This document shows, piece by piece, positions 29,890 to 60,507 of a stretch of 64,000 bases of DNA. Location: assembly GCF_044647545.1 (NCBI RefSeq), contig NZ_CP172818.1; one strand, given 5' to 3'. The notes below the pieces were generated by a model. That model was not told the DNA's origin. It was given only the letters and a program-made list of their open reading frames with translations, and searched no databases. The stretch comes from Escherichia coli (GTDB lineage: Bacteria > Pseudomonadota > Gammaproteobacteria > Enterobacterales > Enterobacteriaceae). Numbering within the stretch: position 1 is the stretch's first letter; every line of letters starts with the position of its first letter. The position numbers and the translations under genes were made by a program.

Positions 29890-31968
29890 ATGTCATATAC
29901 ACCGATGAGTGATCTCGGACAACAAGGGTTGTTCGACATCACTCGGACACTATTGCAGCAGCCCGATCTGGCCTCGCTGTGTGAGGCTCTTTCGCAACTG
30001 GTAAAGCGTTCTGCGCTCGCCGACAACGCGGCTATTGTGTTGTGGCAAGCGCAGACTCAACGTGCGTCTTATTACGCGTCGCGTGAAAAAGACACCCCCA
30101 TTAAATATGAAGACGAAACTGTTCTGGCACACGGTCCGGTACGCAGCATTTTGTCGCGCCCTGATACGCTGCATTGCAGTTACGAAGAATTTTGTGAAAC
30201 CTGGCCGCAGCTGGCCGCAGGTGGGCTATACCCCAAATTTGGTCACTATTGCCTGATGCCACTGGCGGCGGAAGGGCATATTTTTGGTGGCTGTGAATTT
30301 ATTCGTTATGACGATCGCCCGTGGAGTGAAAAAGAGTTCAATCGCCTGCAAACATTTACGCAGATCGTTTCTGTCGTCACCGAACAAATCCAGAGCCGCG
30401 TCGTTAACAATGTCGACTATGAGTTGTTATGCCGGGAACGCGATAACTTCCGCATCCTGGTCGCCATCACCAACGCGGTGCTTTCCCGCCTGGATATGGA
30501 CGAACTGGTCAGCGAAGTCGCCAAAGAAATCCATTACTATTTCGACATTGACGATATCAGCATTGTCTTACGCAGCCACCGTAAAAACAAACTCAACATC
30601 TACTCCACTCACTATCTTGATAAACAGCATCCCGCCCACGAACAGAGCGAAGTCGATGAAGCCGGAACCCTCACCGAACGCGTCTTCAAAAGTAAAGAGA
30701 TGCTGTTGATTAATCTCCACGAGCGGGACGATTTAGCCCCCTATGAACGCATGTTGTTCGACACCTGGGGCAACCAGATTCAAACCTTGTGCCTGTTACC
30801 GCTGATGTCTGGCGACACCATGCTGGGCGTGCTGAAACTGGCGCAATGCGAAGAGAAAGTATTTACCACTACCAATCTGAGCTTACTGCGCCAGATTGCC
30901 GAACGTGTGGCAATCGCTGTCGATAACGCCCTCGCCTATCAGGAAATTCATCGTCTGAAAGAACGGCTGGTTGATGAAAACCTCGCCCTGACCGAGCAGC
31001 TCAACAATGTTGATAGTGAATTTGGCGAGATTATTGGCCGCAGCGAAGCCATGTACAGCGTACTTAAACAAGTTGAAATGGTGGCGCAAAGTGACAGTAC
31101 CGTGCTGATCCTCGGTGAAACTGGTACAGGTAAAGAGCTGATTGCCCGCGCGATCCATAATCTCAGTGGGCGTAATAATCGCCGCATGGTCAAAATGAAC
31201 TGCGCGGCGATGCCTGCCGGATTGCTGGAGAGCGATCTATTTGGTCATGAGCGTGGGGCTTTTACCGGTGCCAGCGCTCAGCGCATTGGTCGTTTTGAAC
31301 TGGCGGATAAAAGCTCACTATTCCTCGATGAAGTGGGCGATATGCCGCTGGAGTTACAGCCGAAGTTGCTGCGTGTATTACAGGAACAGGAGTTTGAACG
31401 TCTTGGCAGCAACAAAATCATTCAGACGGACGTACGTTTAATTGCCGCGACTAACCGCGATCTGAAAAAAATGGTCGCAGACCGAGAGTTCCGTAGCGAT
31501 CTCTATTACCGCCTGAACGTATTCCCGATCCACCTGCCGCCACTACGCGAGCGTCCGGAAGATATTCCGCTGCTGGCGAAAGCCTTTACCTTCAAAATTG
31601 CCCGTCGTCTGGGGCGCAATATCGACAGCATTCCTGCCGAGACGCTGCGCATCCTGAGCAACATGGAATGGCCGTGCAACGTGCGTGAGCTGGAAAACGT
31701 CATTGAGCGCGCGGTATTGCTAACACGCGGCAACGTGCTGCAGCTGTCATTGCCAGATATTGCTTTACCAGAACCTGAAACGCCGCCTGCCGCAACGGTT
31801 GTCGCCCAGGAGGGCGAAGATGAATATCAGTTGATTGTTCGCGTGCTGAAAGAAACCAACGGCGTGGTTGCCGGGCCTAAAGGCGCTGCGCAACGTCTGG
31901 GGCTGAAACGCACGACTCTGCTGTCACGGATGAAGCGACTGGGAATTGATAAATCGGCATTGATTTAA
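29890..31968 (+). CDS. fhlA: formate hydrogenlyase sigma54-dependent transcriptional activator
   Basis: ORF 29854..31968 trimmed to MSYTPMSDLGQQGLF; two GAF domains, AAA+ with GETGTGKE and GAFTGA, C-terminal HTH. Confidence 0.92.
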   Translation: MSYTPMSDLGQQGLFDITRTLLQQPDLASLCEALSQLVKRSALADNAAIVLWQAQTQRASYYASREKDTPIKYEDETVLAHGPVRSILSRPDTLHCSYEEFCETWPQLAAGGLYPKFGHYCLMPLAAEGHIFGGCEFIRYDDRPWSEKEFNRLQTFTQIVSVVTEQIQSRVVNNVDYELLCRERDNFRILVAITNAVLSRLDMDELVSEVAKEIHYYFDIDDISIVLRSHRKNKLNIYSTHYLDKQHPAHEQSEVDEAGTLTERVFKSKEMLLINLHERDDLAPYERMLFDTWGNQIQTLCLLPLMSGDTMLGVLKLAQCEEKVFTTTNLSLLRQIAERVAIAVDNALAYQEIHRLKERLVDENLALTEQLNNVDSEFGEIIGRSEAMYSVLKQVEMVAQSDSTVLILGETGTGKELIARAIHNLSGRNNRRMVKMNCAAMPAGLLESDLFGHERGAFTGASAQRIGRFELADKSSLFLDEVGDMPLELQPKLLRVLQEQEFERLGSNKIIQTDVRLIAATNRDLKKMVADREFRSDLYYRLNVFPIHLPPLRERPEDIPLLAKAFTFKIARRLGRNIDSIPAETLRILSNMEWPCNVRELENVIERAVLLTRGNVLQLSLPDIALPEPETPPAATVVAQEGEDEYQLIVRVLKETNGVVAGPKGAAQRLGLKRTTLLSRMKRLGIDKSALI

Positions 31969-32011
31969 CAGATGTGTTATACTCGATCAACATTCAATGA
32001 AAGGAGGCAGT

Positions 32012-32059
32012 ATGGCAGTTTCAGCAAGAAATCAATTAACCGGAACAGTTACGCAGTAG
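32012..32059 (+). pseudogene. 15-codon ORF with molbindin (Mop/TOBE)-like N-terminus MAVSARNQLTGTVTQ behind a strong RBS; truncated
   Basis: aaggagg 6 nt upstream of ATG; MxxSARNxLxGxV is the typical start of Mop domains; in-frame TAG after 15 codons. Confidence 0.35.
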
Positions 32060-32139
32060 CAATGGGCGCTTGAATGATGAAGTAGAACCGACGCCGCAGG
32101 TGTGCAAAACTTGCAATTGTTACACACAGCAGCCAGCAG

Positions 32140-32390
32140 GCTCTTGGCCGGGAAAAAGGAAAAAAAGGCGCCCCCCCGAAAAAGCCCCCGGGGGGAAACG
32201 CGGAAAAGAAAAGCGGGGGGGAAACTCCCCCCCCCCACCCGCTGCGCGGCGCGCGGGCAAACACCCGCGAAGGGCGGGGGGAGCCCCCTCCAAAAAAAAA
32301 AAGGGGGGGTTTTAAAATGGGGGGGAAAAAAAAAAAAAAGGAAGGAAAAAAAAACCCCCTAAAAAAAAAACACCAAAAAGGAAAAATTTG
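32140..32390. repeat. low-complexity block dominated by homopolymer runs (A up to 14, C up to 10, G up to 7)
   Basis: read directly; composition atypical for E. coli chromosome; resembles degraded base-calls. Confidence 0.8.
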
Positions 32391-32412
32391 CCGGAGAGTA
32401 TGGCTCTCCGGC
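32390..32412 (-). terminator. intrinsic terminator candidate for ygbA
   Basis: gccggagag-tatgg-ctctccggc hairpin 5 nt after ygbA stop, followed on the minus strand by a T-rich tract. Confidence 0.55.
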
Positions 32413-32416
32413 AGAT

Positions 32417-32761
32417 TTATTTCTTTGGACGATATTTTTCTGGCAACTCCGGCACCGGACGCTTGTCATCGATGAGATGACGCACGGTTAAGATCGGATG
32501 ACGCCACAGCATTCGCGGCCCGGCCCAACGCATAATCTGTTTCATCTCTTCACGCTTTGCTGGCTGGTAACAGTGCACCGGACACTGCTTACAGGCTGGT
32601 TTCTCTTCGCCGAACACACATTTATCCAGCCGCTTTTGCGCGTAGGCAAACAGCGCGTCGTAATGCTCCGGCTCCGCTGACGCCTGCGGGCATTTCGCTT
32701 GATAAAGATCGATCATTTTTTTAATCGTCAGTTTTTCACGAGAGATACGCTTGCCGGACAT
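32417..32761 (-). CDS. ygbA: Cys-rich small protein YgbA (nitrous oxide-stimulated promoter family)
   Basis: 114 aa ORF with CxxxC...CxxC...CxxCxxHC cysteine pattern. Confidence 0.85.
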   Translation of the reverse strand: MSGKRISREKLTIKKMIDLYQAKCPQASAEPEHYDALFAYAQKRLDKCVFGEEKPACKQCPVHCYQPAKREEMKQIMRWAGPRMLWRHPILTVRHLIDDKRPVPELPEKYRPKK

Positions 32762-33047
32762 GCTGCCTCCATACTCTTAAGGTGTATTTATATTACAACT
32801 TAATTTGAAAGGGGACTATGGCTCTGAAGGAGGAGGTTTATTCAACCGACGCAATTTTGCGTACTTGCTTCATAAGCATCACGCAAAAGCTGCAAAACAG
32901 CATCTTTCCCGGAATCACCATCAAGAACTCGCCGTTCGCTTCTTCCCCTGAAATGATTAACTCCGGTATCATGTGCGCCTTATGTGATAACAACGAAAAT
33001 AAAAACCATCACACCCCATTTAATATCAGGGAACCGGACATAACCCC

Positions 33048-35609
33048 ATGAGTGCAATAGAAAATTTCGATGCCCATACGCCCATGATGCAGCAGTATCT
33101 CAAGCTGAAAGCCCAGCATCCCGAGATCCTGCTGTTTTACCGGATGGGCGACTTTTATGAACTGTTTTATGACGACGCAAAACGGGCGTCGCAACTGCTG
33201 GATATTTCACTGACCAAACGCGGTGCTTCAGCGGGAGAGCCAATCCCGATGGCGGGGATTCCCTACCATGCGGTGGAAAACTACCTCGCCAAACTGGTGA
33301 ACCAGGGCGAATCGGTTGCTATTTGTGAACAGATTGGCGATCCGGCGACCAGCAAAGGGCCGGTCGAGCGCAAAGTTGTCCGTATCGTTACGCCGGGCAC
33401 CATCAGCGATGAAGCGCTGTTGCAGGAACGTCAGGACAACCTGCTGGCGGCTATCTGGCAGGACAGTAAAGGTTTCGGCTACGCAACGCTGGATATCAGT
33501 TCCGGTCGTTTTCGCCTGAGCGAACCGGCGGACCGCGAAACGATGGCGGCAGAACTGCAACGTACGAATCCAGCGGAATTACTGTATGCGGAAGATTTCG
33601 CCGAGATGTCGCTGATTGAAGGTCGCCGCGGCCTGCGTCGTCGCCCGCTGTGGGAGTTTGAAATCGACACCGCGCGCCAGCAGTTAAACTTGCAATTTGG
33701 CACTCGCGATCTGGTCGGTTTTGGCGTCGAGAACGCGCCGCGCGGACTTTGTGCCGCCGGTTGTCTGTTGCAATATGCGAAAGATACCCAACGCACGACC
33801 CTGCCGCATATTCGTTCTATCACTATGGAACGTGAGCAGGACAGCATCATTATGGATGCCGCGACGCGTCGTAACCTGGAAATCACCCAGAATCTGGCGG
33901 GTGGTGCGGAAAATACGCTGGCTTCTGTGCTCGACTGCACCGTCACGCCGATGGGCAGCCGTATGCTGAAACGCTGGCTGCATATGCCAGTGCGCGATAC
34001 CCGCGTCTTGCTTGAGCGCCAGCAAACTATTGGCGCATTGCAGGATTTCACCGCCGAGCTGCAGCCGGTACTGCGTCAGGTCGGCGACCTGGAACGTATT
34101 CTGGCGCGTCTGGCTTTACGAACCGCTCGCCCACGCGATCTGGCCCGTATGCGTCACGCTTTCCAGCAACTGCCGGAGCTGCGTGCACTATTAGAAAATG
34201 TCGAAAGCGCACCGGTACAGGCGCTGCGTGAGAAGATGGGCGAGTTTGCCGAACTGCGCGATCTGCTGGAGCGGGCCATTATCGACACACCGCCGGTACT
34301 GGTGCGCGACGGTGGTGTTATCGCGCCGGGCTATAACGAAGAGCTGGATGAGTGGCGGGCGCTGGCTGACGGCGCGACCGATTATCTGGAGCGTCTGGAA
34401 ATCCGCGAGCGTGAACGTACCGGCCTGGACACGCTGAAAGTCGGCTTTAACGCGGTTCATGGTTATTACATTCAGATCAGCCGTGGACAAAGCCATCTGG
34501 CACCCATCAACTATATGCGTCGCCAGACGCTGAAAAACGCCGAACGCTACATTATTCCAGAGCTAAAAGAGTATGAAGACAAAGTACTCACCTCGAAAGG
34601 TAAAGCACTGGCACTGGAAAAACAGCTTTATGAAGAGTTGTTCGACCTGCTGTTGCCGCATCTGGAAGCGTTGCAACAGAGCGCGAGCGCGCTGGCGGAA
34701 CTCGACGTGCTGGTGAACCTGGCGGAACGGGCCTATACCCTGAACTACACCTGCCCGACCTTTATTGATAAACCTGGCATTCGCATTACCGAAGGCCGCC
34801 ATCCAGTGGTTGAACAGGTACTGAACGAACCGTTTATCGCTAACCCGCTAAACCTGTCGCCACAGCGCCGCATGTTGATCATTACCGGTCCGAACATGGG
34901 CGGTAAAAGTACCTATATGCGCCAGACCGCGTTGATTGCGCTGATGGCGTATATCGGCAGCTACGTACCGGCGCAAAAAGTCGAGATTGGCCCGATCGAC
35001 CGTATCTTTACCCGCGTAGGCGCGGCAGACGATCTGGCATCCGGGCGTTCAACCTTTATGGTGGAGATGACCGAAACCGCCAATATTTTACATAACGCCA
35101 CCGAATATAGTCTGGTGTTGATGGATGAGATCGGGCGTGGAACGTCCACTTACGATGGTCTGTCGCTGGCGTGGGCATGCGCGGAAAATCTGGCAAATAA
35201 GATCAAAGCGTTGACGCTGTTTGCTACCCACTATTTCGAGCTGACCCAGTTACCGGAGAAAATGGAAGGCGTCGCCAACGTGCATCTCGATGCGCTGGAG
35301 CACGGCGACACCATTGCCTTTATGCACAGCGTGCAGGATGGCGCGGCGAGCAAAAGCTACGGCCTGGCGGTTGCAGCTCTGGCAGGCGTGCCAAAAGAGG
35401 TTATTAAGCGCGCACGGCAAAAACTGCGTGAGCTGGAAAGCATTTCGCCGAACGCCGCCGCTACACAGGTTGATGGTACGCAGATGTCCCTGCTTTCTGC
35501 GCCAGAAGAAACGTCGCCTGCGGTCGAGGCACTGGAAAACCTCGACCCGGATTCACTGACTCCGCGTCAGGCGCTGGAGTGGATTTATCGGTTGAAGAGT
35601 CTGGTGTAA
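33048..35609 (+). CDS. mutS: DNA mismatch repair protein MutS
   Basis: 853 aa ORF; N-terminal mismatch-binding GDFYELF, Walker [10 protein letters not shown]. Confidence 0.95.
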
Positions 35610-35615
35610 TAACAA

Positions 35616-35642
35616 TTCCCGATAGTCTTTTGCTATCGGGAA
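35616..35642 (+). terminator. 10-bp stem hairpin after mutS (ttcccgatag-tcttttg-ctatcgggaa)
   Basis: read in sequence 7 nt after mutS stop; no strong U-run. Confidence 0.45.
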
Positions 35643-35714
35643 TATTAACGACAACTGACGAATCAAATAAAAATACCCTGTATAATAGGAAATCTTATTT
35701 TACAGGGTAAAACC

Positions 35715-36371
35715 ATGCCATCTACACGCTATCAAAAAATTAATGCCCATCACTATCGTTATATATGGGCCGTTGGTGATATTCATGGTGACTATCAATT
35801 ATTACAATCCCGCTTACATCAACTCTCTTTTTGCCCTGAAACCGACTTACTTATTTCCACAGGCGATAATATTGATCGTGGGCCGAAGAGTCTTAACGTG
35901 CTGCACCTGCTAAACCAACCCTGGTTTACGTCGGTTAAAGGCAACCACGAAGCGATGGCGTTGGATGCATTCGAAACTGGCGATGGAAATATGTGGCTTG
36001 CCAGCGGTGGTGACTGGTTTTTCGATTTAAATGATTCAGAGCAACAAGCGGCAATAGATCTGTTGCTGAAATTCCATCACCTTCCACATATTATTGAAGT
36101 TACTAACGACAACACAAAATATGTCATCACACATGCAGATTATCCGGGGAATGAATATCTCTTTGGTAAAGAAATAGCGGAGAGCGAATTACTCTGGCCT
36201 GTTGATCGTGTGCAGAAATCGCTTAATGGCGAGTTACAACAAATAAACGGCGCTGATTATTTTATATTTGGACATATGGTGTTTGATAACATTCAGACGT
36301 TCGCAAACCAGATTTATATTGATACCGGATCGCCGAAAAGCGGGCGGCTGTCATTTTATAAAATAAAGTAG
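35715..36371 (+). CDS. pphB: serine/threonine protein phosphatase 2 (calcineurin-like metallophosphatase)
   Basis: 218 aa ORF with GDIHGD and GDNIDRGP metallophosphatase motifs. Confidence 0.9.
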   Translation: MPSTRYQKINAHHYRYIWAVGDIHGDYQLLQSRLHQLSFCPETDLLISTGDNIDRGPKSLNVLHLLNQPWFTSVKGNHEAMALDAFETGDGNMWLASGGDWFFDLNDSEQQAAIDLLLKFHHLPHIIEVTNDNTKYVITHADYPGNEYLFGKEIAESELLWPVDRVQKSLNGELQQINGADYFIFGHMVFDNIQTFANQIYIDTGSPKSGRLSFYKIK

Positions 36372-36372
36372 T

Positions 36373-36398
36373 CTCATGCTTCTTCTGTGAAGCATGAG
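36373..36398. terminator. 10-bp perfect hairpin (ctcatgcttc-ttctgt-gaagcatgag) between convergent pphB and ygbI
   Basis: read in sequence 2 nt after pphB stop. Confidence 0.5.
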
Positions 36399-36399
36399 T

Positions 36400-37150
36400 A
36401 ACCGAGATGTTCTGCAGGCCCCTACTCATTTTTCGCTACCAGCAAAGAGAGATCCTGCTTCGCCAGCACGCAACTGGCGCTCTCCGGCGAAGCCGCATAT
36501 CTAATAATCTGATCAAACTAGTAATGGTAACGCCAGCCATGTCGCCACCTGACCATATTTCGTCGCATCACAGACCAAAACTCGCTGGCGGCTGGCACTG
36601 GCAATCGCCCGTTTCACCGTGACTTTATCTTTCCGCTGGCGTAAATCCCCCGCACACTCCATGACGATGCAGAAATAAAAACCTGATCAATCATCAGGCT
36701 GCGCAGCATGGTCGCAGCGGCTTCCCCGACACAGGAACGGTTTTCCCGACACACTGCACCGCCAGTGTGAATAATTGTGCAATTACTGTTGTCAGCAAGT
36801 AGTTCGCAATAACGAAATCGTTTGTGACCACAGTCAGTGACTCCATGTGAATCAGATGCTGTGCTATCGCTAACGTGGTCGTTCCCGCATCCAGATAGAT
36901 ACAACTTTCCGGCTGAACAGACTTTTGCCGCCAGCTTGCCAATAGCCGCTTTTTGCGTCATTGCCAGCGCAGTTTTACCTAAGTTCGCCATGCGCCACGC
37001 GTCCCGGAGACTGGACGCCTCCGGACACCCAGCACAACGGCTCCCTGCTGCTCCAGTTTTTGTAAATCCCGACGAATGGTCATATGTGACACATTACTCA
37101 TTCTGTCCGTTAGTTCAGCAATACTGACAATGCCTTTTTCAGCTTATCTC
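36400..37150 (-). pseudogene. ygbI: DeoR-family regulator YgbI, reading frame broken in several places
   Basis: minus-strand translation gives DeoR HTH fragment VSHMTIRRDLQKLEQQGAVVLGV and a C-terminal sugar-binding fragment (ORF 36614..36991) in different frames separated by stops. Confidence 0.5.
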
Positions 37151-37382
37151 AAGGATCATCTGGCGACGCTCTACGGGTATCAACTTTTGCTCCTTCCTTT
37201 GTCCTGCTGACATTCTACGCTATTTGCCTGCGAAACGTGCGCGGCGCAACTAACGCTTAGTTCACATAAAATAACACACAATGTTAATTTATGTGAATCA
37301 GCTCACCATATCGTTATCTTCCAGCGCTTATATTCACAATATCAAACAAAATATCACTTAAATTAACCAACAAGGAGAGCAG

Positions 37383-38291
37383 ATGAAAACGGGATCTGAG
37401 TTTCATGTCGGTATCGTTGGCTTAGGGTGAATGGGAATGGGAGCAGCACTGTCATGTGTCACGAGCAGGTCTTTCTACCTGGGGCGCAGACCTGAACAGC
37501 AATGCCTGCGCTACGTTGAAAGAGGCAGGTGCTTGCGGGGTTGCTTGATAACGCCGCGACGTTTGCCGAAAAACTGGACATTATGCTGGTGCTGGTGGTA
37601 AATGCGGCCCAGGTTAAACAGGTGCTGTTTGGTGAAACGGCGTTTGCACAACATCTGAAACCCGGTACGGCAGTAATGGTTTCTTCCACTATCGCTAGTG
37701 CTGATCGCGCAAGAAATTGCTACCGCTCTGGCTGGATTCGATCTGGAAATGCTGGATGCGCCAGTTTCTGGTGGTGCAGTAAAAGCCGCTAACGGTGAAA
37801 TGACTGTCATGGCCTCCGGTAGCGATATTGCCTTTGAACGACTGGCACCCGTGCTGGAAGCCGTTGCCGGAAAAGTTTATCGCATAGGTGCAGAACCGGG
37901 ACTAAAGAGTTCGACCATTAAAGTTCTTCACCAGTTAGCGGGCGTACATATTGCTGCCGGAGCCGAAGCGATGGCACTTGCAGCCCGTGGGATCCCGCTG
38001 GATGTGATGTATGACGTCGTGACCAATGCCGCCGGAAATTCCTGGATGTTCGAAAACCAGATACGTCATGTGGTGGATGGCGATTACACCCCGCATTCAG
38101 CCGTCGATATTTTTGTTAAGGATCTTGGTCTGGTTGCCGATACAGCCAAAGCCCTGCACTTCCCGCTGCCATTGGCCTCAACAGCATTGAATATGTTCAC
38201 CAGCGCCAGTAACGCGGGTTACGGGAAAGAAGACGATAGCGCAGTTATCAAGATTTTCTCTGGCATCACTCTACCGGGAGCGAAATCATGA
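37383..38291 (+). pseudogene. ygbJ: 3-hydroxyisobutyrate dehydrogenase-family enzyme YgbJ (putative L-threonate dehydrogenase) with premature stop and compensating frameshifts
   Basis: ATG 37383 then GIVGLG Rossmann start, TGA at codon 16 (37428); middle segment readable in frame of ORF 37529..37792 and C-terminal 197 aa in ORF 37698..38291; total span 909 nt equals an intact 302-aa gene. Confidence 0.55.
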
Positions 38292-39454
38292 TCAAGATTG
38301 GCGTTATCGCCGATGATTTTACCGGCGCGACGGATATCGCCAGTTTTCTGGTGGAAAACGGTCTACCAACGGTACAAATTAACGGTGTTCCAACAGGTAA
38401 AATGCCGGAAGCAATCGACGCACTGGTGATCAGCCTGAAAACGCGCTCCTGTCCAGTGGTTGAAGCCACACAGCAATCGCTGGCGGCTCTGAGCTGGTTG
38501 CAACAGCAAGGTTGCAAACAGATCTATTTCAAATACTGCTCTACTTTCGACAGTACGGCGAAAGGTAATATTGGCCCGGTTACCGATGCCTTAATGGATG
38601 CTCTCGACACGCCGTTTACGGTCTTCTCTCCGGCCCTGCCGGTCAACGGACGTACGGTTTATCAGGGGTATTTGTTCGTAATGAATCAACTGCTGGCCGA
38701 ATCCGGGATGCGCCATCACCCGGTAAATCCCATGACCGACAGCTATCTTCCCCGTCTGGTTGAAGCGCAATCCACAGGGCGCTGCGGCGTCGTTTCGGCA
38801 CATGTTTTCGAACAAGGTGTGGATGCCGTTCGTCAAGAGCTGGCTCGCTTACAGCAAGAGGGCTACCGCTACGCGGTGCTTGATGCGCTGACCGAACACC
38901 ATCTGGAAATTCAGGGAGAAGCCTTGCGCGATGCCCCACTGGTAACGGGCGGTTCTGGTCTGGCGATTGGCCTGGCCCGGCAGTGGGCGCAAGAAAACGG
39001 TAACCAGGCTCGCAAAGCAGGGCGTCCGCTCGCTGGGCGCGGCGTAGTGCTCTCCGGTTCATGCTCTCAAATGACCAACCGCCAGGTAGCACATTACCGT
39101 CAAATTGCACCAGCCCGTGAAGTTGATGTGGCACGCTGCCTCTCAATTGAAACTCTGGCCGCTTATGCACACGAACTGGCAGAGTGGGTTCTGGGCCAGG
39201 AAAGTGTACTTGCTCCACTGGTTTTTGCCACCGCCAGCACTGACGCATTGGCAGCAATTCAACAGCAATACGGTGCACAAAAAGCCAGTCAGGCAGTAGA
39301 AACACTGTTTTCTCAACTAGCGGCGCGGTTAGCAGCGGAAGGCGTGACACGCTTTATTGTCGCAGGCGGTGAGACCTCCGGCGTAGTCACACAGAGCCTG
39401 GGAATAAAAGGGTTTCATATTGGCCCAACCATTTCCCCGGCGTGCCGTGGGTAA
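38288..39454 (+). CDS. ygbK: four-carbon acid sugar kinase family protein YgbK (putative 3-oxo-tetronate kinase)
   Basis: 388 aa ORF MIKIGVIADDFTGATDIASFL (DUF1537 N-terminus); 4-bp overlap with ygbJ stop. Confidence 0.8.
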   Translation: MIKIGVIADDFTGATDIASFLVENGLPTVQINGVPTGKMPEAIDALVISLKTRSCPVVEATQQSLAALSWLQQQGCKQIYFKYCSTFDSTAKGNIGPVTDALMDALDTPFTVFSPALPVNGRTVYQGYLFVMNQLLAESGMRHHPVNPMTDSYLPRLVEAQSTGRCGVVSAHVFEQGVDAVRQELARLQQEGYRYAVLDALTEHHLEIQGEALRDAPLVTGGSGLAIGLARQWAQENGNQARKAGRPLAGRGVVLSGSCSQMTNRQVAHYRQIAPAREVDVARCLSIETLAAYAHELAEWVLGQESVLAPLVFATASTDALAAIQQQYGAQKASQAVETLFSQLAARLAAEGVTRFIVAGGETSGVVTQSLGIKGFHIGPTISPACRG

Positions 39455-39545
39455 ACGCACTGGATAAGCCTGTCTCACTCGCCCTTAAATCTGGCAACTT
39501 CGGTGATGACGCCTTTTTTTCACGAGCCCAAAGAGAGTTTTTATC

Positions 39546-40184
39546 ATGAGCGATTTCGCAAAAGTAGAGCAGTCTTTGCGAGAGGAGATGACGCGGATTG
39601 CCAGTTCATTCTTTCAGCGCGGCTATGCAACCGGTTCGGCTGGCAATCTGTCGCTGCTTTTACCTGACGGGAATTTACTGGCGACACCGACAGGTTCATG
39701 CCTGGGCAATCTCGATCCGCAGCGGCTTTCCAAAGTCGCCGCGGATGGCGAATGGTTAAGTGGTGACAAACCCTCGAAAGAGGTGCTCTTTCATCTGGCG
39801 CTGTATCGCAACAATCCGCGCTGTAAAGCGGTGGTGCATTTGCACAGCACATGGTCGACGGCGCTTTCCTGCCTGCAAGGGCTGGACAGCAGCAACGTTA
39901 TTCGTCCGTTCACACCATACGTGGTGATGCGGATGGGAAATGTCCCGCTGGTGCCTTATTACCGACCGGGCGATAAACGCATCGCACAGGATCTGGCGGA
40001 ACTGGCAGCAGACAATCAGGCTTTTTTACTGGCAAATCATGGCCCAGTGGTTTGCGGTGAAAGCCTGCAAGAAGCCGCCAACAATATGGAAGAGCTGGAG
40101 GAAACGGCAAAGCTGATTTTTATTCTCGGTGACCGCCCGATCCGTTATCTGACCGCAGGTGAAATTGCGGAATTAAGGAGTTAA
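39546..40184 (+). CDS. ygbL: class II aldolase/adducin-family protein YgbL (putative 3-oxo-tetronate 4-phosphate decarboxylase)
   Basis: 212 aa ORF, class II aldolase fold signature (HLHS, GS). Confidence 0.8.
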
Positions 40185-40188
40185 TGCA

Positions 40189-40965
40189 ATGCCTCGTTTT
40201 GCAGCTAATTTATCCATGATGTTCACCGAAGTGCCTTTTATTGAACGCTTCGCCGCAGCGCGAAAAGCCGGGTTCGATGCTGTGGAATTTCTGTTTCCCT
40301 ATAACTACTCCACCCTGCAAATCCAAAAGCAACTGGAGCAAAACCATCTGACACTGGCGCTGTTCAATACCGCTCCCGGAGATATTAATGCGGGGGAATG
40401 GGGATTATCCGCCCTTCCCGGACGTGAGCACGAAGCACACGCAGACATCGACCTGGCACTGGAATATGCATTGGCGCTCAATTGTGAACAAGTCCATGTG
40501 ATGGCAGGCGTCGTGCCCGCTGGCGAAGATGCTGAACGGTACCGGGCAGTATTTATCGATAATATCCGCTACGCTGCCGACCGCTTTGCGCCACACGGCA
40601 AGCGAATATTAGTTGAAGCACTCAGCCCCGGCGTTAAGCCTCATTATCTCTTCTCCAGCCAGTATCAGGCACTGGCTATTGTTGAAGAGGTTGCGCGAGA
40701 TAACGTGTTTATTCAACTAGATACTTTTCATGCGCAAAAAGTAGATGGCAACCTGACGCATTTAATCCGCGACTACGCCGGGAAATATGCGCACGTACAA
40801 ATTGCCGGACTACCTGATCGACATGAACCGGACGATGGAGAAATCAACTATCCGTGGCTGTTCCGCCTGTTCGATGAGGTGGGATATCAGGGCTGGATCG
40901 GTTGTGAATATAAACCTCGTGGCCTCACCGAAGAAGGGCTTGGCTGGTTTGACGCCTGGCGCTAA
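40189..40965 (+). CDS. ygbM: hydroxypyruvate isomerase-like TIM-barrel protein YgbM (putative 2-oxo-tetronate isomerase)
   Basis: 258 aa ORF, xylose isomerase-like TIM barrel. Confidence 0.8.
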
Positions 40966-41053
40966 TTCGTTAAATCCCTAATTACAACGTACCCATACAT
41001 CCCCCCATCTACGGATGGGGTAGGTTAACTATAACTTTCAGACAGGGTTTCCC

Positions 41054-42418
41054 ATGTCCACAATTACATTGTTATGCATTGCGTTAGCTGGCGTAATCAT
41101 GCTGTTGCTGCTGGTCATCAAGGCAAAGGTACAACCATTCGTTGCTTTGCTCCTCGTCAGCCTGTTAGTCGCACTTGCGGCAGGTATACCGGCGGGCGAA
41201 GTGGGTAAAGTGATGATCGCCGGGATGGGCGGTGTGCTTGGTTCCGTCACTATTATTATTGGTCTGGGCGCTATGCTGGGGCGTATGATCGAACACTCTG
41301 GTGGTGCAGAGTCACTGGCTAATTATTTCAGTCGCAAGTTAGGTGACAAACGAACTATCGCTGCGCTGACTCTGGCAGCGTTCTTCCTCGGTATTCCCGT
41401 CTTCTTTGATGTCGGCTTTATTATTCTTGCGCCAATCATTTACGGTTTTGCCAAGGTTGCCAAAATATCGCCACTCAAATTTGGCCTGCCTGTCGCTGGG
41501 ATCATGCTCACTGTTCACGTGGCGGTACCGCCGCATCCAGGCCCTGTCGCCGCAGCGGGGTTACTCCACGCAGACATCGGCTGGCTAACCATCATCGGTA
41601 TTGCGATTTCTATTCCCGTAGGGGTTGTTGGCTACTTTGCAGCGAAAATAATCAATAAGCGCCAATATGCGATGTCAGTAGAAGTACTGGAACAGATGCA
41701 ACTGGCTCCGGCCAGTGAGGAAGGCGCGACAAAATTAAGCGATAAAATAAATCCACCGGGCGTCGCGCTGGTCACCTCGCTAATTGTTATTCCTATCGCG
41801 ATTATCATGGCGGGTACGGTTTCCGCAACACTGATGCCGCCTTCGCATCCCCTGCTTGGTACGCTACAGCTGATCGGCTCACCAATGGTAGCTCTAATGA
41901 TTGCGCTGGTGCTGGCATTCTGGTTATTGGCTTTACGTCGCGGCTGGAGCTTACAACACACCAGCGACATTATGGGCTCAGCGCTTCCTACTGCGGCGGT
42001 AGTGATTTTGGTTACTGGTGCTGGAGGGGTATTTGGCAAAGTGCTGGTGGAATCGGGCGTCGGCAAAGCCCTTGCCAACATGCTACAAATGATTGACCTG
42101 CCTCTGTTACCAGCCGCATTTATTATTTCACTGGCGCTGCGTGCATCGCAGGGGTCAGCAACCGTAGCAATACTGACAACCGGCGGGTTACTCTCAGAAG
42201 CGGTGATGGGATTGAATCCGATTCAGTGCGTATTGGTGACGCTGGCAGCCTGCTTTGGTGGGCTTGGTGCGTCACATATTAATGACTCAGGGTTCTGGAT
42301 TGTGACCAAATATCTGGGGTTGTCGGTAGCAGACGGTCTGAAAACCTGGACAGTGTTAACGACCATTCTCGGTTTTACCGGATTCTTAATTACCTGGTGC
42401 GTATGGGCGGTAATTTGA
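41054..42418 (+). CDS. ygbN: GntP-family acid sugar transporter
   Basis: 454 aa polytopic membrane ORF. Confidence 0.85.
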   Translation: MSTITLLCIALAGVIMLLLLVIKAKVQPFVALLLVSLLVALAAGIPAGEVGKVMIAGMGGVLGSVTIIIGLGAMLGRMIEHSGGAESLANYFSRKLGDKRTIAALTLAAFFLGIPVFFDVGFIILAPIIYGFAKVAKISPLKFGLPVAGIMLTVHVAVPPHPGPVAAAGLLHADIGWLTIIGIAISIPVGVVGYFAAKIINKRQYAMSVEVLEQMQLAPASEEGATKLSDKINPPGVALVTSLIVIPIAIIMAGTVSATLMPPSHPLLGTLQLIGSPMVALMIALVLAFWLLALRRGWSLQHTSDIMGSALPTAAVVILVTGAGGVFGKVLVESGVGKALANMLQMIDLPLLPAAFIISLALRASQGSATVAILTTGGLLSEAVMGLNPIQCVLVTLAACFGGLGASHINDSGFWIVTKYLGLSVADGLKTWTVLTTILGFTGFLITWCVWAVI

Positions 42419-42424
42419 CCTTAA

Positions 42425-42457
42425 TAAAAAGGTCCGATGGGCATCGGACCTTTTATT
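42425..42457. terminator. bidirectional intrinsic terminator between ygbN and rpoS
   Basis: aaaa-ggtccgat-gggc-atcggacc-ttttatt: 8-bp GC-rich stem flanked by A-run and T-run. Confidence 0.8.
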
Positions 42458-42511
42458 GTGCACAGAAAAGGCCAGCCTCATAAGAGACTGGCCTTTATGA
42501 CAGATGCTTAC

Positions 42512-43504
42512 TTATTCGCGGAACAGCGCTTCGATATTCAGCCCCTGCGTTTGCAGGATTTCGCGCAAACGGCGCAGGCCTTCAACCTGAATCTGGCGAA
42601 CACGTTCACGGGTGAGGCCAATTTCACGACCTACATCTTCCAGTGTTGCCGCTTCGTACCCCAGCAAACCGAATCGACGTGCCAGTACTTCACGCTGTTT
42701 GGCGTTCAGCTCGAACAGCCATTTGACGATGCTCTGCTTCATATCGTCATCTTGCGTGGTATCTTCCGGACCGTTCTCTTTTTCATCGGCCAGGATGTCC
42801 AGCAACGCTTTTTCGGAATCACCACCCAGCGGGGTGTCTACCGAGGTAATGCGCTCGTTAAGACGAAGCATACGGCTGACGTCATCAACTGGCTTATCCA
42901 GTTGCTCTGCGATCTCTTCCGCACTTGGTTCATGGTCCAGTTTATGGGACAACTCGCGTGCGGTTCGCAGGTAAACGTTCAGCTCCTTTACGATGTGAAT
43001 CGGCAAACGAATAGTACGGGTTTGGTTCATAATCGCCCGTTCGATCGTCTGGCGAATCCACCAGGTTGCGTATGTTGAGAAGCGGAAACCACGTTCCGGG
43101 TCAAACTTCTCTACCGCGCGGATCAGCCCCAGGTTGCCCTCTTCGATAAGATCCAGCAAAGCCAGACCACGATTGCCATAACGGCGGGCAATTTTTACCA
43201 CCAGACGCAAGTTACTCTCGATCATCCGGCGGCGAGAGGCAACATCTCCACGCAGTGCGCGACGCGCAAAATAAACTTCTTCTTCGGCCGTTAACAGTGG
43301 TGAATAACCAATCTCACCAAGGTAAAGCTGAGTCGCGTCCAGCACACGCTGTGTGGCTCCCTGCGATAACAGTTCCTCTTCGGCCAAATCGTTATCACTG
43401 GGTTCCTCTTCTACTAAGGCCTTTTCGTCAAAAACCTCAACTCCGTTCTCATCAAATTCCGCATCTTCATTTAAATCATGAACTTTCAGCGTATTCTGAC
43501 TCAT
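42512..43504 (-). CDS. rpoS: RNA polymerase sigma factor sigma-S (sigma38)
   Basis: ORF 42512..43540 trimmed to [17 protein letters not shown]; sigma70-family regions 2-4; 330 aa. Confidence 0.93.
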
Positions 43505-43566
43505 AAGGTGGCTCCTACCCGTGATCCCTTGACGGAACATTCAAGCAAAAGCCTGGTTCCGCCGAT

Positions 43567-44706
43567 TTATCGCTGCGGCAAATAACGCAGCGGGTTTACG
43601 GATTTCCCCTTGTAACGAATTTCAAAATGCAAGCGTGTTGAACTGGTTCCGGTGCTACCCATGGTTGCTATTTTTTGCCCCGCCTTCACTTCTTGTTGTT
43701 CCCGGACCAGCATTGTGTCGTTATGGGCGTAGGCACTCAGGTAATCATCATTATGTTTGATGATAATCAGATTACCGTAGCCGCGCAGCGCGTTACCGGC
43801 ATAAACAACGCGGCCATCTGCAGTCGCGATAATTGCCTGTCCTTTGCTGCCTGCGATATCAATCCCCTTGTTGCCCCCCTCAGAAGCGCCAAAGGTTTCG
43901 ATCACTTTGCCCTCAGTCGGCCAGCGCCAGGTGGAGATAGGCGTACTGGTTGATGTACTGCTGACAGTCGGCTCGGTTGTGCTTGCTGTTGGTACCGTTA
44001 CAGGCGCTGTGACCGTGGTCGCAGTTGGCTTGTTGTTCGGCAACATTTTGTTAGCACTCTGTTCACCCGAAGACTCAGAATACGTAATTGTCGGTTGCGA
44101 AGCAACAGCAACGGTGGAATTTTGTGCAGGCTTGATCACAACTCCTTGCTCTGCTGCGTCGGCCTGGGTAATGGCATTTCCGCCAGTGATTGGCGTACCG
44201 GAAGCATTCCCCACCTGTAAGGTCTGACCGACGTTCAGCGCATATGGTGCCTGAATATTGTTGCGCTGAGCAAGGTCACGGAAATCGTTGCCAGTAATCC
44301 AGGCGATATAGAAAAGTGTGTCGCCTTTTTTCACGGTGTATGTACTGCCGCTATAACTGCCTTTCGGAATGTTCCCATACTGACGGTTGTAGACGATTCG
44401 TCCGTTTTCCATCTGTACCGGCTGCTGAGCTACTGGCTGCACAGGCTGGATTTGCGGTTGTTGAGTAGCCTGAATTTGTGGCTGCTGTACCGGCTGAATT
44501 TGCGGTTGCTGCGCTGTAGACGTCGTCCCCATTTTCGACGGCGGCGTAATCAACATACCAGAATTGGTATTTGTAGGCGCATTGCCATTAACGGAGCTGA
44601 CCGGTGCCGGTGGATTTGAAGTGTCAGAACAGCCTGCCAGCCATAGCGAAACCAGTGACAAAGCCGCAATGCGGCGAACGGTGAATTTTGGGCTTCCCGC
44701 GCTCAT
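43567..44706 (-). CDS. nlpD: LysM/M23-peptidase lipoprotein, amidase activator NlpD
   Basis: 379 aa ORF with lipobox LAGCS, QPQIQ repeats, LysM and C-terminal M23 domain; rpoS promoter known to lie within this gene. Confidence 0.92.
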
Positions 44707-44845
44707 TTATCCCCCAGGAAAAATTGGTTAATAACCAGTGACATAATTACCGTGCAAGGCACCATACTGAACACTGGAAAAGATGTTCACGATACGCTGA
44801 CTTGCGGCAAAATAACCAGGAAAAATCCAGGTATTTCCTCACGTT

Positions 44846-46207
<1,362 letters not shown>

Positions 46208-53652: not shown

Positions 53653-54418
53653 CGGTTTATCCCCGCTGGCGCGGGGAATCGCCGGAAAATATTCATGATG
53701 GGGGTGGTTATGGCGGTTTATCCCCGCTGGCGCGGGGAATCTCGGGGCCGCCGTGTTCACATTTGCCTAATTTCCCGGTTTATCCCCGCTGGCGCGGGGA
53801 ACTCTATCATAAACGAGGTGAATTTATGGAAACTGTACGGTTTATCCCCGCTGGCGCGGGGAACTCGTTAGTTTTCGAAAAAATTGTTTTCTTACGCTGG
53901 TTTATCCCCGCTGGCGCGGGGAACTCAATTATTGTCGTGGACAAATGCCGGTGTTATTGCGGTTTATCCCCGCTGGCGCGGGGAACTCATTCGAGACAAT
54001 CTCTCAAAATTAATGAAATCGGTTTATCCCCGCTGGCGCGGGGAACTCCAGGTATCAAGAAATAATCGAAGCCTTCATGACGGTTTATCCCCGCTGGCGC
54101 GGGGAACTCAATTGATTGCTGGGTGATATTGGAAAATGTTGCGGTTTATCCCCGCTGGCGCGGGGAACTCCTACCGTACAGATCCTGACCGGATATTATT
54201 TTTTTGCGGTTTATCCCCGCTGGCGCGGGGAACTCCGACGTTCGACGAAATGCGCGATGGCGGTCGGCGGTTTATCCCCGCTGGCGCGGGGAACTCTTCT
54301 GCGTCCCCGATGTCTGGCCCGACTGGTCCGGTTTATCCCCGCTGGCGCGGGGAACTCTATATGACCGGAACACTTCCGCCTGACGTTTGCGGTTTATCCC
54401 CGCTGGCGCGGGGAACTC
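53653..54418 (-). CRISPR. type I-E CRISPR array: 13 copies of 29-bp repeat (minus-strand GAGTTCCCCGCGCCAGCGGGGATAAACCG), 12 spacers
   Basis: repeat starts on + strand at 53653, 53714, 53776, 53838, 53898, 53960, 54020, 54081, 54142, 54207, 54268, 54329, 54390; distal repeats degenerate; spacers about 31-33 nt except one of 36 nt. Confidence 0.97.
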
Positions 54419-54523
54419 TCTAAAAGTATACATTTGTTCTTAAAGCATTTTTTCCCATAAAAACAACCCACCAACCTTAATGTAACATTTCCTTATTATT
54501 AAAGATCAGCTAATTCTTTGTTT
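54419..54523 (-). promoter_or_regulatory. AT-rich CRISPR leader between cas2 stop and first repeat
   Basis: 105 bp AT-rich tract adjacent to consensus repeats; the degenerate repeat is at the opposite end. Confidence 0.8.
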
Positions 54524-55727
<1,204 letters not shown>

Positions 55728-55742
55728 TTTATTACACCTAAA

Positions 55743-56342
55743 TCACAGTGGAGCCAAAGATAGCAAGCCACATCCCATCGATTTAGCTGGCCCAATACCT
55801 TGCTGTACAAGATCTATTAACGCTGGCGCGTCGTTGATGGTGATCACCCCTTCAAAGCAAACCGTTTGAATCTTTCCACTTTTACCATCACCAGAAAAAT
55901 ACTGTGGCCGTTCCGATATGGGATGCACATCTTCAACGCGCGCCGCATTGCCCAATTTACGTTGCAACCACGCGATTTGTTCTGCTTCTTTTATTAACGG
56001 AACCCGACAGCGTTTAATATTCCCTTTACTGTCCAGGCGCTTTTGATTGTCGAGAATAGTTTTGATCGGATTTGCCCGAAGCCGAAAATAGAGTGGAACA
56101 CCAACCTGAAGTTGAAATTCAACCTGTTTAGTTTTAATGACTGTCGCAACGGCAGTTGAAACAGGCATTTGCGCTGACTGCAATAAAACATGACAGCCTT
56201 CTGGTGTGTTTCGCTTCTCAACATGAAAAAGAAAATCACGAGCAGCATCCGGTCTGTTTGGAAATAAATGCCATAATCCCTGGTGAAGTTGGTAAAGATC
56301 CCTGCTCCAGGCCCTGGCAATGATGACTTTACTGAGATACAT
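55743..56342 (-). CDS. casE: Cascade pre-crRNA endoribonuclease CasE (Cas6e/Cse3)
   Basis: 199 aa ORF MYLSKVIIARAWSRDLYQLHQGLW. Confidence 0.93.
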   Translation of the reverse strand: MYLSKVIIARAWSRDLYQLHQGLWHLFPNRPDAARDFLFHVEKRNTPEGCHVLLQSAQMPVSTAVATVIKTKQVEFQLQVGVPLYFRLRANPIKTILDNQKRLDSKGNIKRCRVPLIKEAEQIAWLQRKLGNAARVEDVHPISERPQYFSGDGKSGKIQTVCFEGVITINDAPALIDLVQQGIGPAKSMGCGLLSLAPL

Positions 56343-57003
56343 CCATACCTCCTTTAATCACATACCATTCTCGGGAAGCAAATTGTCGAGGTAAGGTGAT
56401 CATCGGTTCGTCGCGCGCCGTAAATTTTAAATAATGCCCTGTAACTGATTCCTCACTATAAATATCGCCGCCAACGGGCTCATAATTTAATAGCGCCTTC
56501 TGAGGATCCGATGCCTTACATGTCCCCAAAAAAAGCGGGTGTGTTAGTGGGCAACTTCTCCGCCCCAGGTAGGGTGTATACCGAGGCTTTAATACTGCTT
56601 TTTCAAGTTCTGAGATAACCATCGTTGCATGGGGTGTTAACCAGAGAGCGACGGTAAAGGAGGCATCACATAAATATTCGCGCCATGTTTGAATCGTTTC
56701 ATGACTTTTCAAACCACGGTAATCTTCTCGCGCTCCAAGGACTGTATGGTAATCACGCAACCCCGTTACAGACACACGACGATCGTCAAGAATGAGTTCA
56801 TCGCAGCGCACTGCAAATTGCACACTCTCTGATAACGCCTGTAATGAAGAAGTATCATCACGTTGGATCCCAAGACAAGCACCGAGTAGCCCTAATAACC
56901 CGCTTCGGGTCGGAAATCTTCCGGTAGGTCGCGTTCCTTCAAAGGTCGGCTGCCCCCAGGCTTGCATTGGCCCAGCAAGCCGCAAGATCAAATAAGATCT
57001 CAT
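56329..57003 (-). CDS. casD: Cascade subunit CasD (Cas5e)
   Basis: ORF trimmed to MRSYLILRLAGPMQAWG; 224 aa. Confidence 0.92.
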   Translation of the reverse strand: MRSYLILRLAGPMQAWGQPTFEGTRPTGRFPTRSGLLGLLGACLGIQRDDTSSLQALSESVQFAVRCDELILDDRRVSVTGLRDYHTVLGAREDYRGLKSHETIQTWREYLCDASFTVALWLTPHATMVISELEKAVLKPRYTPYLGRRSCPLTHPLFLGTCKASDPQKALLNYEPVGGDIYSEESVTGHYLKFTARDEPMITLPRQFASREWYVIKGGMDVSQ

Positions 57004-57005
57004 GT

Positions 57006-58097
57006 TCACGCCTCGCCATTATTACGAACCCAGGATTTTAACTGTTCTAAAGTAGGCATTTGTTTAACTTGAGCAGTAATTGGGTCTACATCAGATAAGC
57101 TGAATTGCGCAGCAGCTCCGTTCAGACCATATCCATTGGCAACGCGATCCCAATATTGATTAAAAGCCTGTATAGACGGTTGCAAAAAGCCATCTTTCGC
57201 TTTAACCGCTTTTTCAAAAGCATTTGCCATAGAAAGTGGCATATCGGAGAAATTAACCATTACCATATCCGCAGGGTTAAAAGCGGCATAAGTACGCTGT
57301 TTTGCTCCAGGGACCTCTGTTGCCAGCATATGAACAACATGGGTTGCAATTTCCAGAGCCTGCTCCCTGGAGGCACCACCTAAATTTTCCTGAAGTTGAG
57401 CGAGGTTAATGTTGGCATAACGATAAAAAACACCCGATGAAAATTCCTGAGTTCCCAGATGTGCAGAACCTTGTTCCTGTAAATCATCTACAGCGGTGAA
57501 CCAGTCAATATCAGAATCAACCTGATGAGTAGTGATCGCATGCGCAATGGACATTGCACCATCAACTTTTCCCAACTCACTCATCATGCCGCTGGTTGCC
57601 ATTCTTCCACTAAGCGCAATATCAACACCCTGCTGTAAATTCACACGTATGGCGGCAATATCTTCCTTAAGAACTTTGAGCAGCTTTTTATCATCCAGAT
57701 TATCAGCCTCTGCTTTTGCAACCTGCTCACAGAACCAGGCTATTTCTCCCACAACCCAGGGAGTAACCGCATCGGCAGAAATCTTTTCGGCTTCATCAAC
57801 TAATTTACCGGAGAGCAGCGCTAATGTCTTATCGATGATTTTTTGGTCAAAACGTTCACCAAGTTTTTGCCGAAGAACATCACGTAATTGTGCAAGATGA
57901 ATTGTTCTGAGACTGGATTCACCAATATTTTGTGCGTAATAATCACTTTTACGCATCGCACGTTTAAGGCTTTGACTTGAAATTCTTACTCGTCTTTTCC
58001 CGCCGAAAATAGCGTCTTTCTGCATGTTCATATCGTCGCGGTTCAGACATGAAGGGCTGTGAGAAATCAGAACATGAATATTGATAAAGTTAGACAT
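57006..58097 (-). CDS. casC: Cascade backbone subunit CasC (Cas7e/Cse4)
   Basis: 363 aa [25 protein letters not shown]. Confidence 0.93.
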
Positions 58098-58109
58098 AGA
58101 AAGGTTTCC

Positions 58110-60093: not shown

Positions 60094-60507
60094 TTGTTCT
60101 CCTTCATATGCTCCGACATTTCTCCTGCATTTCTATACGTCGGCACACTTCCGTTATCGGTAAAAACAAAGAAAAAATACGGCGTAATTAATTCAATAAT
60201 CACATTCACTGCAAAAATATATTCATTGGTTTAATACAATTAACCTATGCATATATTAAGATGTGTTGAATTGTTTAAAGACAATAATGCATGCATTTCA
60301 AATCTGCAAGTTATTCGTTTTATTATCAAAGAAATTTTTAGTTATAATAATTACCATAAATTTTATTACATAAAATATTCATACTGTGAATATAAAATCT
60401 CATACCGGGAAATTAAAAGAAGATGTACATTGTGCACCTTCCCTACTTAAGTAGGGATAAACCGTTATTGGTCTTGTTATCGTCATTGATACCAATCATT
60501 CCCGAAG
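60094..60507. promoter_or_regulatory. AT-rich casA-cas3 intergenic region; expected site of Pcas promoter and H-NS/LeuO control
   Basis: 414 bp, strongly AT-rich, upstream of casA; contains 16-bp perfect palindrome ccctacttaagtaggg at 60441..60456; regulatory roles are from established K-12 literature, not read from sequence. Confidence 0.6.

Follow-up and report, generated by a model that had tools for sequence, protein, structure and literature searches.

In Escherichia coli, L-threonate is presumably taken up via YgbN and is then oxidized by LtnD to 2-oxo-tetronate, which OtnI isomerizes to 3-oxo-tetronate; OtnK is the kinase that phosphorylates 3-oxo-tetronate, and OtnC decarboxylates the OtnK product to dihydroxyacetone phosphate (DHAP). 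YgbI, a repressor of the DeoR family, binds the divergent promoter of ygbI and ygbJ at a single site. The order of steps, from LtnD through OtnI, OtnK and OtnC to DHAP, follows the outline of Zhang et al. 2016 summarized in PMC12540250, and both the repressor role of YgbI and a single ChIP-exo site between ygbI and ygbJ have been reported (PMC8464067). Four-step clusters for L-threonate or D-erythronate breakdown, built around DUF1537 kinases, in Ralstonia eutropha H16 and other bacteria (Zhang et al. 2016) and, under VdtR control, in Brucella (PMC10580937) have in common with the locus considered here a kinase, a class II aldolase-type decarboxylase and a TIM-barrel isomerase, as well as a beta-hydroxyacid dehydrogenase, a DeoR repressor and a transporter. 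Unlike those clusters, the present locus has an LtnD-type dehydrogenase only and no second (DenD) dehydrogenase, its transporter is of the GntP type where Brucella uses an MFS type, and as written its dehydrogenase and repressor are destroyed and its kinase is C-terminally truncated. The chromosomal setting is also well described: recombination is known to have made a mosaic of the mutS-rpoS region, with patterns I-IV, and pattern II, the K-12 type, is frequent among non-B2 strains (Ewers et al. 2014, PMC4209514).

Positions 38288-42418 of the window (the whole 64,000-nt stretch of E. coli DNA that was analysed), together with the sequence upstream, are the already well known ygbI/ygbJKLMN four-carbon acid-sugar locus of E. 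coli K-12, in which ygbJKLM are currently named ltnD-otnK-otnC-otnI and are followed by the GntP permease gene ygbN. Of 5,426 complete E. coli genomes, 5,415 have the locus. Its genes are ordered, spaced and oriented as in the K-12 locus (b2735-b2740), and all 4402 bases of 38064-42465 agree with K-12-lineage genomes (L002 and L003), so nothing in this stretch is new. The biological weight of the copy is correspondingly small: locus, pathway and repressor have all been described, and it adds nothing new in genes, domains or arrangement.

The four downstream genes lie on the + strand at the positions given by an earlier sequence-only reading, and profile searches placed each in its expected family and none in an unrelated one. 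The product of ygbK/otnK (38288-39454, 3-oxo-tetronate kinase) combines SBD_N (PF07005, 256 bits) and NBD_C (PF17042, 106 bits), the former DUF1537, and scores 544 bits against the NCBIfam equivalog OxoTetrKin (NF043035, cutoff 350) over model positions 1-384 of 418. The 212-aa class II aldolase-fold decarboxylase encoded by ygbL/otnC (39546-40184) matches Aldolase_II at 170.8 bits and the equivalog OxoTetrPhDc (NF043034) over its full length at 334.8 bits (cutoff 250), and ygbM/otnI (40189-40965) encodes a 258-aa xylose-isomerase-like TIM barrel, the 2-oxo-tetronate isomerase, with 166.9 bits to AP_endonuc_2 (PF01261) and 394.5 bits to OxoTetrIsom (NF043033, cutoff 325). The 454-aa permease YgbN (41054-42418), the presumed acid-sugar importer, scores 515 bits against GntP_permease and 828 bits against the GntP family transporter model NF007332 (cutoff 524). 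These equivalog matches, together with PMC8464067 and the pathway outline in PMC12540250, bear out the assignment to L-threonate/D-erythronate catabolism made in that reading. Its 4-bp overlap of ygbJ and ygbK is likewise present, as an ATGA between the end of the ygbJ remnant ORF at 38291 and the ygbK start at 38288. Its description of a ygbJKLMN cluster at 38288-42418 lying downstream of a disrupted dehydrogenase is inconsistent, however, in that ygbJ is itself that dehydrogenase and falls outside those coordinates.

The sequence immediately upstream differs sharply from this perfect block. Alignment over 36404-38063 (1.66 kb) reveals 40 substitutions, 25 of them transitions, with 13 insertions and 12 deletions of 1-7 bp that are not tied to homopolymers; in K-12 the corresponding genes carry no such changes, and the 65 lesions in ygbI/ygbJ are common to no other genome searched. 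In alignments to K-12 and MLI023K1 the remnant of ygbI, encoding the DeoR-family repressor of ygbJKLMN, occupies 36422-37183 on the - strand, where a TTG start (37183-37181) is followed by a 2-bp deletion at 37144 that brings a stop after 14 codons, and by many later indels. K-12 YgbI finds only 44% identity in one frame by tblastn, and the longest fragment left open reaches 116 bits with trans_reg_YgbI (cutoff 400), only part of DeoRC being detected, so that the window has no intact YgbI carrying both HTH_DeoR and DeoRC. The same alignments place the ygbJ/ltnD remnant, for L-threonate dehydrogenase, at 37383-38291 on the + strand. Codon 16 (37428-37430) is changed from TCA to the stop TGA, at least five frame-shifting indels and three 3-bp indels follow, and all that is left open is a 197-aa C-terminal ORF (37698-38291) that scores 315 bits against ThreonDh, below the cutoff of 350, over profile positions 103-296 of 297, the N-terminal Rossmann part being missing. 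An intact L-threonate or D-erythronate dehydrogenase is therefore not present as written, and the lesions responsible may be artefacts.

Between the two remnants, a repeat search identified an inverted repeat with 16-nt arms (TTCACATAAAATAACA N5 TGTTAATTTATGTGAA) at 37261-37297 in the divergent promoter region. This operator-like element is unchanged from K-12 and is a candidate YgbI operator that may correspond to the reported ChIP-exo site, in a promoter region that differs from K-12 by 2 substitutions and a 4-bp insertion. Matches to promoter and terminator consensus sequences were no commoner than in shuffled sequence, and no Rfam family was found within 31000-46000. Among 4,587 E. coli genomes the closest sequence to the lesion zone reaches only 95.6% identity, a value that no complete RefSeq E. 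coli genome exceeds; neither the 197-aa YgbJ fragment nor a 125-aa YgbI fragment had an exact look-up match, and a lesion-specific 37-mer gave 0 matches in GTDB representative genomes and 0 in JGI metagenome contigs. Taken as written, the locus would have no entry step for L-threonate and no repressor, because ygbI and ygbJ carry these lesions, and transcripts of the genes further down would at best start at a derepressed promoter and have to cross ~900 nt of untranslated ygbJ, where Rho-dependent polarity and loss of the ATGA coupling are predicted. The statement that expression depends on whether the lesions are real can thus be accepted as to the dependence itself, but the lesions are most likely not biology and even the presence of the block is doubtful.

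That doubt comes from the wider context, which the sequence-only reading overlooked: the four genes belong to a 100% K-12-identical block inside a non-K-12 backbone. The K-12-type block (36371-42465) stands where the otherwise identical genome DFL.5, the closest relative, has a 2.9-kb ecdBCD/MarR segment. Outside the block, positions 1-36370 and 42466-64000 (~58 kb) differ from E. coli DFL.5 only at 10742, 18006-18031, 31975-32385 and 53678-54188, and the flanks of the block contain no donor SNPs. Flanking mutS, pphB and rpoS are not of the K-12 type, mutS being ~5-6% diverged, and a TOBE-gene insertion lies between fhlA and mutS. The left junction (36300-36403) occurs at 100% identity in natural genomes. 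The right junction falls within a 15-nt common stretch in the rpoS terminator hairpin, at the very edge of homology, and as a 75-nt sequence it is absent from 5,426 complete E. coli genomes, where the best match is only 93.3%, the window having the rpoS terminator loop of DFL.5/pattern I (ATAA, against GCTT in K-12). Against the published patterns (PMC4209514), ygbN directly beside rpoS is the K-12-type pattern II order, but the K-12-type junction sequence is not matched and the remaining backbone is that of a pattern I genome, DFL.5 having ecdBCD/MarR beside rpoS. The combination of pattern II ygbN-rpoS order, pattern I backbone, fhlA-mutS TOBE-gene insertion and this right junction is absent from the 5,426 complete genomes.

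All five patches that depart from DFL.5 fall where the genome structure of the DFL.5 type and that of the K-12 type diverge. The patch at 31975-32385 decays progressively into a homopolymer smear, another is a ~553 bp deletion with an A9 junction, and a third is a CRISPR array whose repeats and spacers contain single-base indels and whose repeats are spaced at 60-65 bp, not 61. A frameshifted 755-aa HypF had no exact look-up match. The ygbI/ygbJ lesions belong with these error-like patches at sites that vary between strains, a connection missed previously, and the TOBE gene, the hypF 3' end and the CRISPR spacers could also seed false findings. An origin from E. coli NA114 or ST131, known for its poor assembly, was set aside, a full type I-E cas operon being present in the window, and a Shigella origin was dismissed because the 64 kb contains no IS elements and its backbone is that of DFL.5.

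We therefore favor, at a probability of roughly 0.7, an account in which this is a K-12-type locus whose last four genes are K-12-identical, kinase defect included, whose ygbI/ygbJ lesions are most likely non-biological, and whose block is probably chimeric. The lesions are most likely non-biological because error-like patches are found only where the backbone differs structurally from K-12-type genomes, and because ~4% change in 1.66 kb beside 4.4 kb unchanged excludes a neutral clock. The ygb block probably reflects a reconstruction that is chimeric or of low quality, and it is probably not native to the chromosome of the strain; it could have arisen by reference-derived fill-in, mixed-strain assembly or an in-silico join. 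This view of lesions and block as artefacts rests on pattern, not proof, and some observations run against it: the transition share of 25/40 fits natural mutation, and the left junction is natural. In principle a K-12-type block could also have come in naturally, since mutS-rpoS is a recombination mosaic (PMC4209514). No specific artefact mechanism behind the ygbI/ygbJ noise is demonstrated. Reads of the DFL.5 type blended onto a K-12 reference were rejected as its source, as three-way alignment found no DFL.5 signal in the altered bases, and so was a single low-quality read tail, since the lesions do not grow steadily denser in either direction.

A block native to the strain, with only the lesions being read or consensus errors, would leave a true locus that is intact and K-12-like, a YgbI-repressed ygbI-ygbJKLMN behaving as in K-12 with the truncated kinase included. 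The natural left junction, the frequency of pattern II in non-B2 strains (PMC4209514) and the clear presence of error-like sequence elsewhere in the window speak for this account, which we nevertheless consider unlikely: the right junction is unseen in 5,426 genomes and lies within only 15 nt of common sequence, the flanks are free of donor SNPs, and the nearest relative has ecdBCD/MarR at this site.

If instead everything were real, a K-12-type block would have been imported by recombination and ygbI and ygbJ would have decayed after or before import. The result would be a derepressed remnant operon, otnK-otnC-otnI-ygbN, unable to start from L-threonate, that might handle oxo-tetronates or act promiscuously, for example on m-tartrate. 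This is quite improbable, given that 65 lesions in 1.66 kb stand next to 4.4 kb that match K-12 perfectly and 58 kb that match DFL.5 perfectly, which clock-like decay does not explain, and that other patches in the same window cannot be biological. Bacterial pseudogene decay shows a deletion bias, whereas here insertions about equal deletions, at 1-7 bp and outside homopolymers, and no other genome searched has any of the lesions. On the other side, loss of YgbI function, derepressing ygbJKLMN, was selected in m-tartrate evolution experiments (PMC6452873, PMC8464067), and the region is a recombination hotspot (PMC4209514). Least credible of all, with only a very slight chance of being correct, is a version with real lesions and a real junction, in which a K-12-type ygb block joined a pattern-I chromosome at ~15 nt of homology and its first 1.7 kb then suffered a burst of ~65 changes, for example through error-prone synthesis during the recombination event, while 4.4 kb stayed untouched. 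The disrupted dehydrogenase and mosaic context should accordingly not be taken as pseudogenisation or strain-specific metabolism without a check of the reads.

One defect in the block is common to K-12 itself and had been overlooked. The ygbK product is exactly the 388-aa K-12 allele (K-12 DH10B CP000948.1 and others). Compared with the 420-aa OtnK of most E. coli, residues 1-384 are identical, and a 1-bp contraction of a C-run (C5 to C4) at 39435-39438 leads to a stop at 39454. The C4 run is followed, through 39549 on the + strand, by the out-of-frame yet undamaged coding sequence of the conserved C-terminus, which ends in an ATGA overlap with ygbL. The slip thus removes the conserved C-terminal PGVPW...KSGNFG motif of the commoner form. 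The kinase aligns end to end with Salmonella OtnK (PDB 3DQQ) at high overall identity, but relative to the 420-aa E. coli and Salmonella proteins and to H. influenzae HI1011 (1YZY) it lacks residues 385-420, which include PGVPW and KSGNFG and whose motif is conserved in four solved homologues (PDB 3DQQ, 1YZY, 5DMH and 4XFM). Consistent with this, the NBD_C profile is covered over positions 1-142 of 168 only, and a complete C-terminal nucleotide-binding domain with its PGVPW...K-x-G-x-FG end is absent from the 388-aa kinase, as it is in K-12. The description of the four genes as intact holds for ygbL, ygbM and ygbN, which are open, and for ygbK only in the K-12 sense. Their tight linkage holds for the ygbJ/ygbK overlap, but the same slip leaves a gap of 91 bp between kinase and ygbL in place of an overlap. 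Literature searches found no report on growth of K-12 on L-threonate or on how active the 388-aa kinase is. In its widely used K-12 form, OtnK is a frameshift-truncated protein, which matters for studies of threonate catabolism in K-12.

The ygb genes of the window belong to the mutS-rpoS region of E. coli, a classic variable region whose mosaic character is well documented (PMC4209514). Four open reading frames on the + strand were found where the sequence-only reading had placed them: ygbK (38288-39454, 388 aa), ygbL (39546-40184, 212 aa), ygbM (40189-40965, 258 aa) and ygbN (41054-42418, 454 aa). The 4-bp overlap between ygbJ and ygbK it described is also present as ATGA, with the ygbJ remnant ending at 38291 and ygbK beginning at 38288. 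Pfam and NCBIfam profile searches assigned YgbK to SBD_N and NBD_C (formerly DUF1537) and to the equivalog OxoTetrKin (544 bits, cutoff 350), YgbL to Aldolase_II and OxoTetrPhDc (335 bits, cutoff 250), YgbM to AP_endonuc_2 and OxoTetrIsom (394 bits, cutoff 325), and YgbN to GntP_permease and the GntP family transporter model NF007332 (828 bits, cutoff 524). The domain assignments proposed earlier thus agree with the profiles, and because all four match the expected models none belongs to an unrelated family. In gene content, order and sequence the ygb genes equal those of E. coli K-12; this is the known K-12-type ltnD-otnK-otnC-otnI-ygbN arrangement, with no new family member or variant.

According to PMC12540250 and PMC10580937, which recount Zhang et al. 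2016, L-threonate is converted by LtnD to 2-oxo-tetronate and by OtnI to 3-oxo-tetronate, which OtnK phosphorylates to 3-oxo-tetronate 4-phosphate and OtnC converts to DHAP. This pathway and the equivalog matches bear out the proposed role of the ygb genes in L-threonate catabolism. YgbM carries the label 'HPr family phosphocarrier protein' in RefSeq and NCBIfam (NF007441/PRK09989), both in the window and at another compared locus (L001, 5293-6069); the label looks wrong, since YgbM is a xylose-isomerase-like TIM barrel and also passes the 2-oxo-tetronate isomerase equivalog. Two long antisense frames, 42437-43078 (+, 213 aa, opposite rpoS) and 38643-39350 (-, 235 aa, opposite ygbK), overlap these well-supported genes and are almost certainly spurious.

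The four genes had also been called intact, which holds for the full-length YgbL, YgbM and YgbN but only in the K-12 sense for YgbK, a frameshift-truncated allele. The 388-aa product is exactly the K-12 protein, as encoded by DH10B (CP000948.1), and the gene-position collection lists it in 18,051 blocks; many other E. coli carry a 420-aa form, identical over residues 1-384, for which there are 42,840 blocks. The two forms differ by a C5>C4 contraction at 39435-39438, and the window protein ends in ISPACRG with its stop at 39454, the NBD_C profile being matched to position 142 of 168 only. The missing end, PGVPW...K(S/A)G(N/G)FG, is conserved in 3DQQ (Salmonella), 1YZY (Haemophilus), 5DMH and 4XFM, the last a distant DUF1537 member; its loss may impair the kinase. 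The 36 codons of the conserved C-terminus are undamaged in the +1 frame (39435-39549) and overlap ygbL by ATGA (39546-39549), and therefore a single-base slip would restore the 420-aa enzyme. We found no discussion in the literature of this restorable slip in K-12 OtnK, and that the K-12 gene is a frameshift-truncated allele is a point of wider use.

Upstream of ygbK the sequence is heavily altered. Relative to K-12, positions 36404-38063 contain 40 substitutions, of which 25 are transitions, together with 13 insertions and 12 deletions of 1-7 bp, mostly outside homopolymers. The ygbI frame (-, TTG start at 37183) stops after 14 codons. In ygbJ, codon 16 is changed to a stop (TCA>TGA), and reading through the gene takes at least four frame changes. 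As written, both the repressor and the entry dehydrogenase are absent. Among complete E. coli genomes the highest identity to this zone is 95.6%, and a lesion-specific 37-mer and the window-specific ORFs had zero matches in the collections queried. Lesion density follows no simple read-tail gradient. The changed bases show no admixture of sequence from E. coli DFL.5 (NZ_CP104843.1), the backbone match.

Positions 1-36370 and 42466-64000 match DFL.5, in which a 2.9-kb ecdBCD/MarR segment lies between pphB and rpoS where the window has the ygb genes. The adjoining mutS (33048-35609) and pphB (35715-36371) are identical to DFL.5-type genomes and about 5-6% diverged from K-12, chiefly at third codon positions (33048-36371), whereas 38064-42465 is identical to two K-12-lineage genomes at 4402 of 4402 positions; a K-12-identical block therefore abuts strongly non-K-12 flanks. 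The left junction occurs naturally. The right junction falls in a 15-nt stretch common to both genome types, within the terminator hairpin of rpoS (-, directly after 42465), and the first diagnostic bases beyond it are already DFL.5-type (loop ATAA, not GCTT).

Across the flanks (~58 kb) only four other places differ from DFL.5, and all five, the ygb block included, coincide with structural differences between DFL.5-type and K-12-type genomes. At 10742, the edge of one such stretch, hypF (-, 10698-12965) has lost 1 bp close to its 3′ end, 5 codons ahead of the DFL.5 stop, which alters and lengthens the C-terminus (755 aa versus 746 aa), and the exact 755-aa product has no record in the databases queried. 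At 18006-18031/18033 a deletion of ~553 bp is joined by an A9 run not in DFL.5; between hycI and ascB it takes out two small genes, one for a hypothetical protein and one for an HTH protein. Between fhlA and ygbA a TOBE-domain gene (31975-32385), which K-12 lacks and DFL.5 has intact, degenerates progressively to runs such as GGAAAAAGGAAAAAAAGGCGCCCCCCCGAAAAAGCCCCCGGGGGG before perfect identity abruptly returns at 32386, which looks like low-quality sequence and not biology. The type I-E CRISPR array (53654-54419, 13 repeats) lies beside apparently intact cas3-cse1-cse2-cas7-cas5-cas6e-cas1 ORFs (54810-63174, -); compared with DFL.5 it has one repeat-spacer unit fewer, and its repeats and spacers contain ~11 indels of one base (53678-54188), with spacings of 60-65 bp against a regular 61. 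Such error-like patches could mislead other findings from the window.

We consider the ygbI/ygbJ damage an artefact of sequence quality or reconstruction (probability roughly 0.7), and, somewhat less firmly, we lean towards the K-12 block itself being chimeric, through reference-derived fill-in, mixed-strain assembly or an in-silico join. Several observations disfavor natural decay and a natural join. The 31975-32385 smear cannot be biological, and a neutral clock cannot leave a 1.66-kb zone with ~4% change flanked by 4.4 kb and 58 kb that have none. The right junction passes from the shared 15 nt immediately to DFL.5-type sequence, and over 75 nt the closest of 5,426 complete genomes is 93.3% identical to it. 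That the block is native and only its base calls are erroneous is unlikely, and a fully real import followed by decay is very improbable.

For the DeoR repressor YgbI, ChIP-exo shows one site, located between ygbI and ygbJ; deletion of ygbI derepresses ygbJKLMN (PMC8464067); ygbI mutations also arise in laboratory evolution on m-tartrate (PMC6452873). Were the lesions real, the promoter would be derepressed through the loss of YgbI, and the codon 16 nonsense change in ygbJ would expose ~900 nt of untranslated RNA, so that ygbK-N would be expected to undergo polarity and to lose translational coupling at the ATGA; L-threonate could not start the pathway. An inverted repeat with 16-nt arms at 37261-37297 is a plausible candidate for the YgbI operator.
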